Shown here piece after piece: positions 1 to 6,702 of a DNA stretch of 11,159 nucleotides. The stretch comes from a virus. Lineage: Duplodnaviria; Heunggongvirae; Uroviricota; Caudoviricetes. The position numbers and the translations under genes are program-made. The notes under the pieces were generated by a model that was not told the DNA's origin, searched no databases, and worked only from the letters and a program-made list of their open reading frames with translations. Within the stretch, counting starts at the first letter, position 1; the number at the start of each line of letters is the position of its first letter. The stretch lies in IMG/VR virus record IMGVR_UViG_2541047866_000002; one strand, written 5' to 3'.

Positions 1-94
1 AGCAGAAAAAGCTTATTATGCTTCCATCGGAAACGATGATCTGGCAGCCTGAGTTCACAGATAAAACACTCTCCAGGAAACCCGGGGCGGTTCA
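1..94 (+). mobile_element. 3' end of an IS629-like (IS3 family) insertion sequence: transposase OrfB C-terminal codons plus right terminal inverted repeat
   Basis: Bases 69-94 (ctctccaggaaacccggggcggttca) are the reverse complement of the element start at 11065-11090 (tgaaccgccccgggaatcctggagac) with 3 mismatches over 26 bp, and end in the IS3-family terminal CA. The termini match what I remember of IS629/IS1203-type elements. Confidence 0.8.
2..52 (+). CDS. IS3-family transposase OrfB, C-terminal fragment (5' partial, gene continues upstream of the window)
   Basis: Frame 2 reads AEKAYYASIGNDDLAA then TGA at 50-52, open to the window edge, immediately followed by the terminal inverted repeat. 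Confidence 0.6.
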   Translation, partial: AEKAYYASIGNDDLAA

Positions 95-328
95 GAGTAG
101 CTTACGAAGCTTACCATCAGCGGCAACCATGTTCATATGAACACAGTTGAATTTGCTAATCTGCTTCATGAGTTTTGTTTGCTGCGTTGACCAGCTCATT
201 CCGAGGTTTTCAACGATTGGCTTCATCGCAACATATGCAACTCCGGCAGCCATGGCGGTGATAATTTGCTGACCGTTGAATGGCACGTAAGAGGTGTTCA
301 CTGCTTCTAAAATTGCTATACTATTCAT
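95..328 (-). pseudogene. ant: Antirepressor Ant-like gene (AntA/BRO-N type N-terminal domain), 3'-truncated by the IS insertion
   Basis: ATG at 328-326 opens [43 protein letters not shown]..., about 78 native codons. The reading frame runs straight into the IS terminus and its stop codon (94-92, TGA) is supplied by the IS end TGAACC. It lies downstream of an Arc-like gene as in P22 immI. The GTG at 394 of the ORF track is rejected as start. Confidence 0.6.
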
Positions 329-400
329 GTTGGTTTTTCTCCACGGATTTACCGACAACCGAAGCCCTGACTGTTCCAGCAGTTGGGGCTTCACTGTTTT
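329..400 (+). ncRNA. Candidate sar-like antisense RNA covering the ant ribosome-binding region
   Basis: Extended -10 element TGcTATACT at 314-322 on the plus strand (inside the ant 5' end, antisense). A stem-loop at 361-392 (gaagccc...gggcttc, 7-bp stem with an internal ctg/cag sub-stem) is followed by a T-rich tract at 393-410. Predicted transcript is about 70 nt, antisense to the ant leader. P22 encodes a small sar RNA in the equivalent position. Confidence 0.3.
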
Positions 401-560
401 GATTTCTTTGCCGCATCAAGCATCACTTCTGAAAACGTGCGCTTGCCACTGAATACTCTTTCTCTTCTCAATTTTTCGTTCGTGCCAAATGATTCGCCAT
501 GAACAAAATTTGGTCTTAAAATGGTAATCGCAATCTCTTTGACTACTGCATCCAAGCGAA

Positions 561-713
561 TCACACCGTTACCCCCTCTCTCTTCAGGCTGTCTATCAGG
601 CGCTTGATAACCTCTGAGTTAAACGACCTGCACTCTTCCTTTGCCCTGCTACCGATAGCATCCTTTAACGACTGCGGCATCCTTACCAAAATCTTACTTA
701 TTTCTTTCTCCAT
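561..713 (-). CDS. arc: Arc-like ribbon-helix-helix repressor (50 aa)
   Basis: ATG at 713-711 preceded by GGAGG with a 5-nt spacer. The product MEKEISKILVRMPQSLKDAIGSRAKEECRSFNSEVIKRLIDSLKREGVTV resembles P22 Arc (...ENGRSVNSEIYQRVMESFKKEG...). It is divergent from an Mnt-like gene. The TTG at 749 is rejected as start. Confidence 0.8.
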   Translation of the reverse strand: MEKEISKILVRMPQSLKDAIGSRAKEECRSFNSEVIKRLIDSLKREGVTV

Positions 714-827
714 GTTACCCTCCACGCAAACAACTCTTTTCGAATACAAAAGATAGCAAAGTGAGTATATCTAGTCAAAATTTTTTTGCATACACTTTGC
801 TATCAAATTGAATACCAAAGGTGTTAT
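714..827. promoter_or_regulatory. Divergent arc / mnt promoter-operator region with a perfect 12-bp inverted repeat
   Basis: gatagcaaagtg at 752-763 and its exact reverse complement cactttgctatc at 793-804, 29 bp apart. On the minus strand -35 TTGACT (plus 773-778), a 17-bp spacer and -10 TATCTT (plus 750-755) lie upstream of arc, with one repeat copy in the spacer and overlapping the -10. On the plus strand a TTGCAT -35-like hexamer (786-791) sits just 5' of the other copy; the plus-strand -10 is unclear. Confidence 0.55.
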
Positions 828-1076
828 ATGGCAAAGGGTGTGTCAATTTCTCCAACTACGGTAAGAATCCCTGAATCTTTACGCGAGGCTCTTGCTGTCA
901 GAGCATCAAAAAATGGTCGCTCTGTTAACTCCGAGATCGTCATGATTTTGCAAGCCGCGATTGATGAAGATAGGTCGCCAAAGTCAGTTGAGTCATTTGC
1001 TCAGCAAGAAGCTGATAAATTCAAAGAGGCGCTACTTGAGACGCTAAAGACCATGTATGCTAAGGATGAAAAATAA
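828..1076 (+). CDS. mnt: Mnt-like ribbon-helix-helix repressor (82 aa)
   Basis: ATG at 828. The product MAKGVSISPTTVRIPESLREALAVRASKNGRSVNSEIVMILQAA...KFKEALLETLKTMYAKDEK resembles P22 Mnt along its length (GRSMNSELLQIVQDAL ... KKMVFDTLKDLYKK). It is divergent from arc as in immI. The stop TAA at 1074-1076 overlaps the next ATG (TAATG). Confidence 0.8.
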   Translation: MAKGVSISPTTVRIPESLREALAVRASKNGRSVNSEIVMILQAAIDEDRSPKSVESFAQQEADKFKEALLETLKTMYAKDEK

Positions 1077-1612
1077 TGCTGCACACAATTCATTTCTTAT
1101 GCCCTGTTAACACTGCCACTGTTGGGCAACTTCAGAACCACTGTCTCACCGCATTATCTCAAGGCGCAACTGAATTAAATATCCATATATCAAGTCAGGG
1201 AGGGGAAACTGCTGCTGGCTTTACTGCGTATAACTTTCTTAAGTCACTCCCTGTTACCGTTAGAACTCACAACATAAGCAATGTTGAATCCATAGCTAAT
1301 ATCGTTTTCCTGGCTGGCTCAGAACGTTTCGCAAACCCATTATCAAGATTCCTGTTACATCCTCTATTATGGTGCTTTGCCTCCCCAGCCGCCGACCATG
1401 CCAGATTGAGAGAGTACGGGAAATGCCTCGATAACGATCTTGATCGCTTCGTTGAGACGTTCAATATCGACATCGGAACCCATATTAGGTGGGCATCCCT
1501 GATAGCAGACTCGACCATTTTGGATGCTAACAAGGCTCTTGAGCATGGCATAATTAATTCCATAAAAACTGCAAGGCTGGCATCCAATCAGGCAAACTGG
1601 TGGGTTGTTTGA
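1076..1612 (+). CDS. ClpP-fold (S14-like) serine peptidase, short stand-alone form (178 aa)
   Basis: Start overlaps the mnt stop (TAATG). ISSQGGETAAGFTAYNFL aligns by eye to ClpP INSPGGVITAGMSIYDTM; NVESIANIVFLAGSERFANPLSRFLLHPL to [32 protein letters not shown]; the C-terminal ILDANKALEHGIINSI to FLSAPEAVEYGLVDSI. Candidate Ser (ESIA), His (LLHP) and Asp (IADSTILD) residues are present. Family assignment is from memory, not a search. Confidence 0.6.
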   Translation: MLHTIHFLCPVNTATVGQLQNHCLTALSQGATELNIHISSQGGETAAGFTAYNFLKSLPVTVRTHNISNVESIANIVFLAGSERFANPLSRFLLHPLLWCFASPAADHARLREYGKCLDNDLDRFVETFNIDIGTHIRWASLIADSTILDANKALEHGIINSIKTARLASNQANWWVV

Positions 1613-1630
1613 TGGGTAAATCATGATTAC

Positions 1631-1662
1631 TCCTTATAAAAAACCCACCTGACGGTGGGTTT
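1631..1662. terminator. Stem-loop terminator between the convergent ClpP-like and YafO-like genes
   Basis: aaacccacc-tgac-ggtgggttt at 1641-1662 (9-bp perfect stem, 4-nt loop). On the minus strand it is followed by TTTTTATAAGGAG (plus 1631-1640), a canonical intrinsic terminator for the minus-strand cassette. On the plus strand the downstream T-tract is weak. Confidence 0.55.
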
Positions 1663-2110
1663 AGTCAAACATAGTGTTTCTAAAGTCTCTCGCATACCCT
1701 GCTAACACTCTCATTCTATTATGATTGTTAGCAGACATGTGAGCTACAGGATGAAAAAGAGCAATCAATGAATACCTGTTCTCATCAAAAAGATTTTGTG
1801 CATAAACGAGAGCGGTATTGGATGTTTTATGCCACTGCAACTTTTGCGGTGTGCTGATATCTGTGCCATTTTTTATTGGCTCAAATTTATTTTCACCAAT
1901 TGCTAAATGAAGGTGCATAAGGCCTGCATCTTCAATATCAGGAGGTCGATGATAAGAGGTGTCTCTGCCAAAATAGCTGGGCAACGTTCCCGTAGACTTG
2001 TAGATGATAAAATCATCTACAAGTGTTTGTTTTAAATCAGGAAACTCAACAAAAACCGGGGAGAAAAAATAGTCAAAACTATCCTGATTATATTCCACGG
2101 TTACTTGCAT
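1661..2110 (-). CDS. YafO-family toxin-like protein (149 aa)
   Basis: ATG at 2110-2108 with GAGGT 5 nt upstream, located inside the 3' end of the preceding gene. The product aligns by eye with E. coli YafO as I remember it: DFIIYKSTGTLPSYFGRD / DFISYKRDGVLPDTFGRD; HLHLAIGENKF / HIHLANENNPF; ALVYAQNLFDE...LIALFHPVAH / HLVYCQGAFDE...LIAILKPEPH; and a C-terminal N..M......A..FR pattern. Confidence 0.7.
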   Translation of the reverse strand: MQVTVEYNQDSFDYFFSPVFVEFPDLKQTLVDDFIIYKSTGTLPSYFGRDTSYHRPPDIEDAGLMHLHLAIGENKFEPIKNGTDISTPQKLQWHKTSNTALVYAQNLFDENRYSLIALFHPVAHMSANNHNRMRVLAGYARDFRNTMFD

Positions 2111-2118
2111 GTTTTACC

Positions 2119-2685
2119 TCAGTGGAAGTTACCAGAGTGAAACACACGAGTCCCGTGCTCAGCAAGCGCACGCAAACCAGCCATATCTACGGAACTATCA
2201 AAAACAACCGGAACACATGAGCGTTGTTTAATAAGACTATTCAGGTTGGTTACGGCAGATCTGGCATCAGCAACAACGATATAGATATCTCTTGCGATCT
2301 CTTTAAAATCAGCAGAAGCTTCTTTGAATACCGATTTCATTGCCCCTTCAAGTCCTCTCAATTGATGCTCTATCAATCGAGACTTTTCTGGTTCAATGAT
2401 AGACAACACATTGTCTACATTCTCATCGGTAGCGTTTGCAAGAACACGATAAGCGTATTTCAGCATTCGAGACAATTCTTTAATCGAAGACACCGCCTCA
2501 TGAAGCTCATCATTAGCCCGTTCACTGCTGAATGAGGATTGATGGTAAGCGTGCTGAACGTTATCAGTAACAACCACCTCACAACTGAACGCAGAAGCTT
2601 GCTGTAATAGCAAACCTATTGCGACTCCAGCTTTGGCAGCGTTCAAGCTAAACATTTCATCAATCCCATTAGTCTCATTGCTCAT
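2119..2685 (-). CDS. Hypothetical protein (188 aa), upstream partner of the YafO-like gene (antitoxin position)
   Basis: ATG at 2685-2683 preceded by AAGGAGG with a 5-nt spacer. Its stop TGA at 2121-2119 lies 8 nt before the YafO-like start. No motif I recognise (no obvious RHH/HTH). The longer ORF start at 2715 is rejected because it lacks an RBS. Confidence 0.6.
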   Translation of the reverse strand: MSNETNGIDEMFSLNAAKAGVAIGLLLQQASAFSCEVVVTDNVQHAYHQSSFSSERANDELHEAVSSIKELSRMLKYAYRVLANATDENVDNVLSIIEPEKSRLIEHQLRGLEGAMKSVFKEASADFKEIARDIYIVVADARSAVTNLNSLIKQRSCVPVVFDSSVDMAGLRALAEHGTRVFHSGNFH

Positions 2686-2860
2686 ACAAACCTCCTTCTT
2701 ATCGGAGATTATCAATAGCTATGCATCCATTGAATACACGCTATGCGCAATAAGTTTACGTCACGTGATATCATTATGCAACCACCGTTCTATCACCGAC
2801 TAACTTTACTCCCACTCCTATACATCATCTGGTATCCTGCGCAAAACTAAGGAGGTTGGT
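2686..2860. promoter_or_regulatory. Divergent intergenic region between the 188-aa gene and the membrane-protein gene, with candidate promoter and palindrome
   Basis: On the minus strand TTGCAT (plus 2776-2781), a 17-nt spacer and TAAACT form a plausible sigma70-like promoter for the cassette. The spacer contains the 8-bp palindrome TCACGTGA (2761-2768). Promoter for the plus-strand gene not confidently placed. Confidence 0.35.
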
Positions 2861-3211
2861 GTGAATGCTCAGTCTGTCATCATGGTTTTCCTTGGGCTGA
2901 TTGTCGCAAAACTATATCCAGACTGGTGGAAAGGGGCATTAGCTACTGTCGCCATCTATTTGCTTTTATCCATCGTTAAGCGATCACTCGCTGAGACCGT
3001 AAATCAAGCAAAACGTTTCTCATTTAAGAGTTTAATAAACTATGTTACTGGGCTTATTTTTTGCCTTTCAATTCTGATCGCTTCGGCTTTTTTGCCCGTA
3101 TCAATAGCTAATTTTTTTGGCGCACCATATGAGGTAGGTTATCTATTCTCTGTTTCCTGTCTTGCCATTGCTCTTCTTTACCTGTGGACGAGATCAAAGA
3201 ATAAAAATTAG
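2861..3211 (+). CDS. Small integral membrane protein with 4 predicted TM helices (116 aa), in the position and orientation of P22 sieA
   Basis: GTG at 2861 with GGAGG at 2851-2855 (5-nt spacer). Four hydrophobic stretches (VIMVFLGLIVAKLY, ALATVAIYLLLSIV, LIFCLSILIASAFLPVSIANFFG, YLFSVSCLAIALLYLW). Convergent with gene 16 and AT-rich. Confidence 0.6.
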   Translation: MNAQSVIMVFLGLIVAKLYPDWWKGALATVAIYLLLSIVKRSLAETVNQAKRFSFKSLINYVTGLIFCLSILIASAFLPVSIANFFGAPYEVGYLFSVSCLAIALLYLWTRSKNKN

Positions 3212-3223
3212 CCATCCGTGGCT
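3196..3223 (-). terminator. Short hairpin plus U-tract at the 3' end of the late operon (after gene 16)
   Basis: agcca-tccg-tggct at 3210-3223 (5-bp stem), followed on the minus strand by AATTTTTATTCTTT. The stem is short, so strength is uncertain. Confidence 0.35.
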
Positions 3224-3228
3224 GCCAG

Positions 3229-5244
3229 TTATTGAGCTTCTTTTTGTGATGCCTGTGCGACTCTGGTGAGCGATTGTGTGACCGTACTGATCGCTCTGTC
3301 ATATGCTGTGCTACCTTTTGGCGTATTTGCCAGACGTAACAAGGCATTTCGTATAACAGGGCTTTCGTATGCCTTCGCAGCTCCTCCTACGACACCAGCA
3401 GCAGGAACAACAAACGCAGCCGTTTTTAGCATCCCCGCTAATACTGCTGCGTTTATGATGCCACCACCAACTAACAATCCATAAAGCTGCTGACCATTTA
3501 AGTTTTGAACGTTCGCTTTTGCCGCGTGTCTTGTATCGTTGAGGTATTTAATAACGCCGTCCAGTTCCTTTCCATGTACGCCTTTAAAGAAAGTTGCTGA
3601 TTGCTTCCTGTTCCGGTGTAACGCATTAATAAACTTTTCAACACTAATATTTCCAGACGGATCAGTCGCCTTATCTACAGCATTCTGAACTATGGCTGCT
3701 CGTGCGTTTTGCCTACCATTGTCATCCAGAAGCCTGTAAAGCTGAGAACGTTCTGATGGGTTTTGGCTAAAAACGAGTTTTGTTACATCCTCAGGTGTAG
3801 CCTTGCCGCTGGCTATTGCCTTTTGAACGCGCGTTCTTCCCATCATGTCATTGAATCTAGCCCATGAGCGATCAACCCTAGACATATTGGCAGCTTCTTC
3901 TGAGCCTAGTTTTTGGGATACTGCTTTTTTCATATCCGCTGTATATGCCTTGTAGACAATATCGCTGGCTTTCTGGAGCGTGTCTTTATCAACAGTCTCG
4001 TTTGAATTCATGAACCGCTTTCGAAGGTCAGTTCTGTTTTCTCTCGCCAGACGCAGGTCATTGGGTCCGCTGGTGATATCGTCTTTAAATTGCTGCAAGA
4101 CTTTTACCGCGGCTCTATCCTGAGATTTGCCCGGGCGGCTTAACACGGCAATCTGATTGTCGATAGCTTTTACCGTGTTTGAGAGATCGACAGGGGTATC
4201 CCCCATAGCGTCAATTATGCGGTTATATCGCTTTCCTGCTGCCTCAATGAATTTTTGTTGCCCTTTAGTCGCAGATTCATAAAGCTGTTTATCAGAAATG
4301 CCACCCAGACCATCGCTAAATGTTCTGACTAAATTTTCTCGTGCTTGTTGTTGATTCAGCCGATTCTTACCGGTTCCAAAAAAAGGAACTCTTTCGCCTA
4401 ATGTCTGAGCCTGACTCTGCATAAAGGTTTTATCTTTCAGCGTGTCACTGGTCATTAACGGCAGGTTTCTTTCCGACGCAAAATCGACAGCAGCCTTTGC
4501 TTCCGGTGACATCTCACCGCGAACAGCCCTGGAAACCGCACTAACTGTATTTTCCAGCCCCTTGCCAACACCACCAATGCCAGCAGAAATTACCGTTTGT
4601 GCAGGATCAATATCTTCTCCGCCAGCAAGGCTGGTGCCACCCTGTAGTGCTAAATCTGTAGCAGCTGATTTCCCTATGGCACCAAGCACCGTTCCAGCCC
4701 TGCCCGCTGGTGTGAACGCTAACGCATTAGCAAGAAACGAAGTCAGGTCTTGCGGTGATAAACCTGGCTTGTTCAGGGCATAATCACCGGATGGCAGGGA
4801 AACGATAGTGTTACCCTTCTCATCCTGCCTTAATTTCGCCCCCATACTCTGAAGAATCTTTTCCTGAGACGCGTCGGAGCCGAAAAGTTGAGACCATCCA
4901 GCCTTCAGGGCATCCATGCTTAGTGAGTTCAACTCAGGGGCAGCCCCAACATTTTGCAGTCTCTCCATTTCTGGTGTCATTCGGCTTTCACCGGTAACGG
5001 CATCGCGCATTGCAGCACCTAAAACAGCCCCTTGCTCAGCAGAGCGATCTAGTCCTTCCTTCTGCTGAGTGGCAAGCTGTGCATATCCTGATGCAAGTGA
5101 GTTGTCTGCTGGCGATTGCTGAACACCTTGTTGTGTTGGCGCTGACTGACCAGCAAAATACTCATCAATGGCGGACCCAATATCTTCCGTGCTCGTACCA
5201 TCAGGAAAGGTAAATGTCTTACCATTTGCAGTTACTTTCATCAT
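3229..5244 (-). CDS. Ejection (injection) protein, P22 gene 16-like
   Basis: 671-codon ORF, third of three consecutive genes after a gp7-like gene as in P22 (7-20-16). Starts [16 protein letters not shown]... at tandem ATGs (5244 and 5241) that overlap the gene 20 stop (ATGATGA); the true start may be 5241. Gly/Ala-rich. Confidence 0.75.
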
Positions 5245-6692
5245 TCCACCGTAAATTGAATGCCTGATTTTGACGTGTAGCTACCTCCTGCTGATTGCTG
5301 AGTAGCTGGCTGTTGCCTTGATGATTTCTTCCCGCCATTACCAACATTAACGTTATATTGCTGGTTGTAATTGTCGGTATATTGCTGAATGTCGCGCATT
5401 GATTGTTGCAGCGCTTCAGGACTTGAGAAATCAGGCTTTGGCATACCCTGAAAATACCTATTGGCCTCTGCTTCGGTGTTGATGCCAGATGCCCCCATAT
5501 CTCGGGCTGCTGCAATCCCCTGATTTTGCATTTTGCCCATGATTCGCTGTGCAGCGTTGTATAGCCTCCTCTCCTCAACACCAGATGCCCTGCTACGAAT
5601 ATCTGCACCAAGAGCAAAAGAACCTGAAGAACCTGTAATACCTGTCATGAAGCCAAGATCGTCAATTGATGCGCCAGAAATTGCATCAAGATCTTTCTTC
5701 ATTTCGTAATTCTGTGCATTAGCTGCCGATGTAGCCGGAGCAGCAATAGAACTGGCGGGGACGCGAATCATATTGCCCTCGTTGTCTATTCCTTCGTAGA
5801 ACGCATTAGCACCAGCGCCGTGAAGCTTCCTACCAACCGTTACCGTTCTGCCATCTGCCAGTTGCACAACATTCTCCCCGCCAGCATCAGGACGACCTCG
5901 AACACGAAGATATGTCTTTTGTTGCTCTGGAGACAGGCTGTTGAAATATTGATATTCTTTAACAGATGCAGGAACAGCACCTCCAGCAGTGCGCAGGGAG
6001 TTTTCACGGCTAACAGCAATGCTTTGCGCCTTTAAACCTTCCCCAGCTTTATTGCTGCGAATCGTCTCTGCCAACTTGCCACGCTCAATATCCCGACCTT
6101 CCATTTGATCTTTGATATCGAAATACTTCTCATGACCGAGAGAAAATAGTGCCAGATTACCTGCGAAGTGCTGGAAGCCCTGCGGGTCATTAACCTGCAT
6201 TTCCGCAATAGTTTCTGGAGGGATACCTAAACGACGCATCTCCTTTTCGTTATCCATCATGAACCTGCCAAATGCACCCGGACCAAGCGACGAAGCGACC
6301 TGAGCCTTAAGCGCCAGATTGCCAAAATCATCCCGCTGGGCGTCATCGACATACCCCATGCCTTTACGGACTTCCTCAAACTCTTCGGGGAATGCTGTAA
6401 TAAGATTACGCATCTGCTCCCTGTCGCCGGACGCATAAGCATCCGCATAACCTTTCTGGAATGCCGCTTTACGCTCCTGCTTTTGCTGCTGCTTATAAAT
6501 ATCAGCAACTCCAGCCAGACCACGAAGACCTGTCAGAGCAACGTTATTTGCACCTGATCGAGCCAGTTCATTGTTTTCGCGGATCAGACCAAGCGTTGCG
6601 TTAATGTCGCTTGCCTTTGGCGCATTCTCATTTTGCGTACCGATGCCAGCCAGAAACCCACCAGAATTAATACCCTGTTGCCACGTAGCCAT
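5241..6692 (-). CDS. Ejection (injection) protein, P22 gene 20-like
   Basis: 483 aa (P22 gp20 is 471 aa as I recall). ATG at 6692 preceded by AAGGGG. Synteny between the gene 7- and gene 16-like ORFs. Confidence 0.75.
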
Positions 6693-6702
6693 TGATTACC
6701 CC

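Follow-up and report, generated by a model that had tools for sequence, protein, structure and literature searches.

How does an antirepressor gene come to end, after 78 codons, in the terminus of an insertion sequence, and how much does its loss matter to the prophage that carries it? These questions are raised by a stretch of 11,159 nucleotides from a virus of the Caudoviricetes (IMG/VR record IMGVR_UViG_2541047866_000002), hereafter called the window, near whose left edge an ant reading frame on the minus strand runs into the end of an IS element. The preliminary description of this DNA, made from the sequence alone, read the arrangement as an IS insertion that truncates ant, leaves an antirepressor that is likely non-functional and would abolish antirepressor-mediated induction. 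Our comparison with related prophages leads to an account that differs in the first and the last of these points. We put the probability at close to nine in ten that an IS629-associated deletion, and not a simple insertion, left an inactive ant stub of 78 codons in a prophage that was already cryptic. The window itself ends 94 nt into the IS, and for its source the far side was deduced from other assemblies that have this very junction.

The truncated ant frame and the IS629 terminus

The features at the two edges of the window on which the argument is built are the following.

1–94, plus strand: IS629-type element, last 94 nt (IS positions 1217–1310, IRR end), the rest lying off the window; 100% match to the IS of locus L006
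92–94, minus strand: ant stop codon TGA, which is the terminal TGA of the IS (TGAACC...); intact ant has the T and the G as well
95–328, minus strand: ant', codons 1–78 of the 300 in a P22-type antirepressor gene; 100% identity to residues 1–78 of WP_001350929.1, and Pfam
10654–11064, minus strand: P22-type coat protein gene, 3' fragment cut by the second IS629 copy
11065–11159, plus strand: second IS629 copy, first 95 nt (IRL end and start of orfA), in the same orientation as the left copy; 100% match to IS positions 1–95

Translation of the window gives a minus-strand ant frame that extends from an ATG at 326–328, preceded by a leader that looks plausible, to the TGA at 92–94, a length of 78 codons with the C-terminal end DGKLRKLL*. 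At the break, intact ant reads CTC TGC, and hence two nucleotides (93–94) are common to ant and the IS. With these shared positions the break may formally also be written as 92/93, and BLAST aligns ant from 93. The A of the stop codon, however, can derive only from the IS, which bears out the earlier proposal that the frame is stopped by a TGA formed from the terminal TGAACC of the element.

The IS could be identified with the help of a full-length reference copy extracted from the related locus L006. Bases 1–94 of the window are 100% identical to the IRR end of this 1310-bp IS3-family element, which is itself 99.5% identical over its whole length to features annotated as "IS3 family IS629" in the Stx phage records LC567824.1 and LC567828.1. 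The ends of the copy read TGAACCGCCCCGGG...CCCGGGGCGGTTCA, that is, TGAACCG...CGGTTCA, with the 5'-TG and CA-3' of IS3-family terminal repeats, and positions 70–96 and 11063–11089 of the window form a 27-nt imperfect inverted repeat that is 93% complementary. The window holds only 94 + 95 nt of IS, and orfA and orfB were found outside it: in L006 and L011, where the junction is the same, the full 1310-bp element contains HTH_Tnp_1 and rve ORFs, and RefSeq annotates a "programmed frameshift" (orfA/orfB) on identical copies. In strain FY26, two simple insertions of the same element are flanked by 3-bp target duplications, AAC and GCC. Because these duplications fix the ends of the IS to the base, the boundary falls at 94/95, exactly where the preliminary description had placed the collision of the ant frame with the IS terminus; the objection of a boundary elsewhere, which it had itself named, thus fails. 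In its length of 1310 bp, its ends, the orfA/orfB frameshift, the 3-bp duplications and the 99.5% identity, the element is the same as in the IS629 systems of E. coli. IS629 is also annotated as IS1203 family.

The arrangement is not due to chance: window positions 95–11064 match the prophage of E. coli S88 with 100% identity throughout their 10,970 bp. The S88-type prophage adjoins a tRNA-Arg gene, and its genes include intS for the integrase, one for an endosialidase tailspike and one for an acyltransferase. Its virion genes are 99.4% identical to those of phage CUS-3, while the ant moron differs, and the APEC O1 prophage, which is of the S88 type, has been treated alongside the CUS-3-type "ant morons" (PMC2629481).

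At the same site, dozens of complete E. coli genomes, S88, APEC O1 and ATCC 11775 among them, encode an intact allele, WP_001350929.1 ("phage antirepressor Ant"; 300 aa, 903 nt), whose residues 1–78 are 100% identical to the fragment. In Pfam, the intact protein shows P22_AR_N (E = 4e-45) followed by P22_AR_C (E = 2e-28), and in phage records the Ant of Salmonella P22-type phages likewise has 300 aa, with about 84% identity. Both the identity to WP_001350929.1 and the Pfam matches show that the gene had been correctly called as an antirepressor gene, and alignment with the intact allele puts the break after codon 78, in line with the roughly 78 N-terminal codons counted earlier. The stub matches positions 2–66 of the 115 in the P22_AR_N profile, and P22_AR_C is absent. 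Whereas the intact allele has about 300 aa with both domains, the window product does not, and its sequence marks it as a remnant of a P22-type Ant, not a functional member. With about half of the N domain and the whole C domain gone, the earlier judgment that the antirepressor is likely non-functional appears sound: three quarters of Ant are missing and the end falls in mid-domain, and for this reason the 78-residue stub is almost certainly inactive. A PDB sequence search for a solved Ant structure, in which residue 78 might be placed in the fold, gave no match.

One could object that the 78-aa ORF is a naturally short gene, or even a functional mini-antirepressor, instead of a remnant. The start codon, the ribosome-binding region, sar, arc and mnt have all been kept, and the product is annotated as a protein in GenBank. 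By exact-sequence look-up, it was present in 33 blocks of a public sequence collection, and it is also found on 16 contigs with GenBank accessions such as EQV42062.1, bearing the name "antirepressor protein ant" in E. coli UMEA 3041-1 and KOEGE 32 (66a). We nevertheless hold this explanation to be highly improbable, given that the ORF is 100% identical to the start of a 300-aa protein, ends in IS-derived sequence and stops within a domain, after 66 of the 115 positions of P22_AR_N. The preliminary description had itself conceded that its reading would fall if intact homologs were only about 78 aa long; the intact relatives have 300 aa. Alleles annotated as "antirepressor N-terminal domain-containing protein" in IMT5155, NMBU_W05E18 and DE17, where no IS is close by, were considered as further truncations and rejected. 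All of them are full-length (903 nt), and they are hence no evidence of recurrent ant decay.

The far side of the insertion sequence

The window appears to be an entire short-read contig that broke off at IS629 copies in the same direct orientation and derives from a P22-like prophage of K1 E. coli. Its edges, with 94 and 95 nt of IS, match contig ends within the N-gapped scaffold KE701458.1 (loci L009 and L015 of assembly GCA_000460015.1), which carry exactly the same 94 and 95 nt. Because the window is a repeat-bounded contig, the far side of the IS is invisible in it. The loci with the junction were mapped onto the intact S88 prophage (locus L017), in whose coordinates the positions below are given. 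We also rejected the idea of a circular molecule with a single IS that would supply both IS ends of the window, as the flanks differ (GAG versus ATC) and the scaffolds place the segment in the chromosome.

In GCA_000460015.1, the order is terminase, IS, further sequence up to the 5' part of the coat gene, IS, the segment of the window, IS, S88 positions 5480 down to 4176, and IS. The terminase copy has a perfect 3-bp duplication (TTA-IS-TTA). At the coat copy (L014/L015), both halves of the coat gene flank the IS, which in the ant-sense orientation reads GAT-IS-GAT; the coat copy is a simple insertion, unlike the ant copy. The flanks of the ant copy in L009 are CTC-IS-CCA, with no 3-bp duplication, and S88 5481–6509, numbered 2498480–2499508 in S88 itself, are missing at this junction. 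These 1,029 bp comprise 669 bp from the 3' part of ant, the spacer of 100 bp and the initial 260 bp of the tailspike gene. The far side in this matching scaffold is base 261 of the endosialidase tailspike gene, by a link that spans a run of Ns.

A gap-free view across the IS is offered by L006 (OZ040687.1, a complete chromosome), where the ant junction is followed by the full 1310-bp element and then by S88 4993. The flanks of this copy are CTC-IS-TGG, again with no duplication, and a second IS joins 4176 to 3311. In L007, the far side is 5480, as in L009, both being Broad scaffolds with an N gap of about the size of the IS, and in L008 a single IS joins 6510 to 3311. Two other loci lead away from this segment: the 40-kb contig L018 (MKJC01000013.1) continues past the IS into another prophage, and in L011, a metagenome scaffold, the IS is followed by an integrase-like gene. 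The far sides of L018 and L011 represent either an IS-mediated rearrangement or a repeat misassembly. Among the differing far sides as a whole (5480, 4993, 3311, another prophage and an integrase-like gene), some could be repeat-induced misassemblies. The part of L018 beyond the IS (11616–20303) holds GmrSD, DinI, a resolvase fragment and Mu-type baseplate genes.

In every assembly in which the junction was followed across the IS (L006, L007, L008, L009, L018 and L011), the 3' part of ant is absent from the far side, and the lost 1,029 bp were likewise not found when all junction-bearing loci were searched out to 10 kb from the junction. These results bear directly on the possibility of a simple IS629 insertion, which would have split ant and left codons 79–300 intact beyond the IS, with a 3-bp duplication at its flanks. 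The end of the window inside the IS leaves room for such an event, and the other IS629 copies in the same prophage, in the coat and terminase genes, are indeed simple insertions. At ant, we consider it very unlikely: the expected arrangement is contradicted by L006, L007, L008 and L009, CTC is not duplicated at the ant copy, and the reciprocal junction that a simple insertion should have produced was found in none of the 5,426 complete RefSeq E. coli genomes. The earlier statement that an IS insertion truncates ant therefore stands in so far as the gene is cut by the end of an IS, and must be given up in so far as it implies a plain insertion, as both the 3' part of the gene and the duplication are absent and at least 1 kb of DNA next to the IS has gone. 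The preliminary description had proposed to look for ant 3' sequence beyond the IS, whose absence would point to an IS-mediated deletion; judged by the other assemblies, it is this alternative that applies.

Doubt might also be cast on the junction itself, which could be an assembly artifact, a chimeric contig end that arose from repeat collapse while ant is really intact. The window does resemble a contig with about 95 nt of repeat at each end, the place where misjoins arise. However, base for base the same junction is seen in independent assemblies, namely, in the gap-free L006, in Logan and ENA contigs and in the 40-kb contig that runs across the whole IS, and an artifact of k-mer overlap would anyway require true adjacency in the reads. 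An artifactual origin is thus extremely improbable. In the 5,426 complete RefSeq E. coli genomes, the same ant-IS junction was not found in one piece. Apparent 100% matches in this set were discarded, since they consist of two joined pieces with the IS elsewhere in or beside ant, within the gene after codon 157 or 256 (471 or 768 nt), or else 133 bp downstream of an ant gene that is intact.

In E. coli, IS629 is a textbook cause of gene inactivation with loss of neighboring DNA. The element is known to inactivate genes and to delete adjacent DNA over distances from a few nucleotides to more than 40 kb (PMC9943667), and the ant locus resembles the known adjacent deletions in that the gene is cut at the IS end, the flank is lost and no duplication is present. 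Such disruptions and adjacent deletions are best described in O157 (Ooka 2009 and Kusumoto 2011, through PMC9943667); unlike in those cases, the host here is of a K1 extraintestinal lineage. For the IS629-associated deletion at ant, we propose that IS629 would first have transposed into or beside the gene. The deletion could then have come about by two routes. Along the first, two directly repeated IS629 copies, generated by a local hop, would have recombined, and the interval between them would have been lost. Along the second, a one-ended deletion adjoining the IS would have been produced by the transposase in the manner of events of the type of the excision enhancer IEE. Recombination between two direct copies may equally have caused the deletion here.

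IS629 junctions in related K1 prophages

Sister genomes include both two-IS intermediates and a one-IS product. They form a nested series in which L009 keeps 4176–5480 between two IS copies, L006 keeps 4176–4993 and L007 keeps 4726–5480. The arrangement in L008, in which the IS stands between 3311 and 6510, is consistent with the product expected of recombination between two IS copies, and the nested series is consistent with stepwise prophage erosion. In L017 coordinates, the IRR-side IS629 junctions are at 4176, 4726, 5750, 5976, 6274 and 6510 and the IRL-side junctions at 2998, 3002, 3311, 4993 and 5480. All of them share one orientation and fall in a segment of about 3.5 kb, in a set of few genomes (L006, L007, L008, L009, L001, L002, L003 and L019). 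In other K1 strains, the IRR end is located at 5750, where ant is intact, at 5976, after 768 nt (256 codons) of the gene, or at 6274, after 471 nt (157 codons).

Further elements and rearrangements were observed in these prophages. In ATCC 11775 (L004 709–3011), the space between ant and the tailspike gene is occupied by ISEc12 (IS21 family), and in APEC IMT5155 and DE17 (L020 and L022, 1–1426) the tailspike gene is cut short by an element of the IS66 family. In AH19K002 (L019 2595–2620), a tandem duplication of the terminal 26 nt of the IS629 IRR (1285–1310) separates the IS from ant, and the junction is the one also seen in strain SCU-116; this duplication may be the footprint of aberrant transposition or repair. 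In L007 (1–10236; KE701237.1), S88 7040–11107 is inverted relative to its neighbors, the left side has an IS629 variant of 97.9% identity, and the 3 bp 7040–7042, inside arc, occur at both affected junctions. This configuration suggests an inversion between oppositely oriented IS copies.

The clustering of junctions raises the further possibility that the tailspike-ant segment is a recurrent target or hotspot of IS erosion, or that it is under selection against the endosialidase tailspike. With a handful of genomes to go by, we regard this as unlikely. Selection would disarm the endosialidase tailspike together with lytic functions, as the tailspike enzyme would degrade the host's own K1 capsule, and would spare both the gene for the acyltransferase and the cargo of the ant moron. 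Alternatively, IS629 may merely be hopping locally in a neutral, decaying prophage. If it were shown to be selected, the nested IS629 pattern around tailspike and ant would be of modest interest.

The ant moron and the consequences of ant truncation

Upstream of the ant start, the window contains the following features.

329–395, plus strand: sar antisense RNA gene, facing the leader and ribosome-binding region of ant; Rfam RF00262, 83.9 bits (gathering 43), positions 1–68 of 68
391–564, minus strand: 57-aa ORF between arc and sar/ant, WP_000620145.1; annotation in identical prophages
561–713, minus strand: arc (Arc repressor, 50 aa); Pfam Arc, E = 5e-12
828–1076, plus strand: mnt-like repressor gene (82 aa, ribbon-helix-helix); Pfam Arc / FitA-like RHH

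The location is that of an immI region, with arc upstream, sar over the ant leader and a divergent mnt. Full-length sar is present just upstream of the ant start, and the control circuit of ant is, as predicted from these matches, intact although ant itself is broken. The order of the genes, between a gp16 homolog and the tailspike gene, is the same as in the immI region of P22 (mnt-arc-sar-ant; the "ant moron" of PMC2629481); unlike in P22, ant has only 78 codons in the window. All identical prophages list the product of the 57-aa ORF at 391–564 as a hypothetical protein, and neither Pfam nor PADLOC gave a match to it. P22 has just a short arc-ant spacer at this position. Lying between arc and sar, the ORF is an extra gene relative to P22, absent from the P22 immI genes given in PMC2629481.

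The moron also differs from that of P22 in the cargo that follows mnt, which here includes ClpP-like and YafO toxin genes and in P22 is sieA (PMC2629481). Within this cargo (window 1076–2685), a gene for a 178-aa ClpP-like protease begins at the mnt stop codon, and the gene for a YafO-family toxin (1661–2110, minus strand) is preceded, at the expected position of an antitoxin, by one for a 188-aa protein without a family match. PADLOC gave no convincing defense-system match among the cargo genes beside ant. In other P22-like phages, HK620 and Scho1, ant is degraded as well (PMC2629481). As in these phages, a functional antirepressor has been lost from the ant moron, a recurrent outcome that phages tolerate; unlike in HK620 and Scho1, the cause is visible here, in the form of an IS629 junction with a deletion.

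In P22, Mnt keeps ant silent, and ant mutants stay SOS-inducible (PMC7380047); phage deleted for mnt-ant are still viable, and lysogeny does not require immI (PMC11016777). The intact S88 reference prophage carries a main repressor of the LexA family (self-cleaving type). The earlier conclusion that antirepressor-mediated induction would be lost is accordingly correct in a narrow sense only and is otherwise overstated, in view of the SOS inducibility of P22 ant mutants (PMC7380047) and of the LexA-family repressor. IS629 also interrupts the genes for coat, terminase and tailspike in the matching scaffold, so that no virions would be made whatever the state of ant, and the loss of Ant changes little. 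An Ant null matters little because P22-type prophages need no Ant for SOS induction and because this prophage is already cryptic.

The truncation of ant is ordinary decay of an already defective prophage. It is also already known in kind, as regards the IS629 element, the P22-type ant remnant and the truncated protein in GenBank. The ant-IS junction is common to a set of K1-type E. coli assemblies and can be used as a clonal marker, and the deposition of the 78-aa stub as "antirepressor protein ant" calls for caution in annotation. Beyond these uses, the nested IS629 junctions around the tailspike gene and ant would offer a tidy natural case of stepwise prophage erosion.
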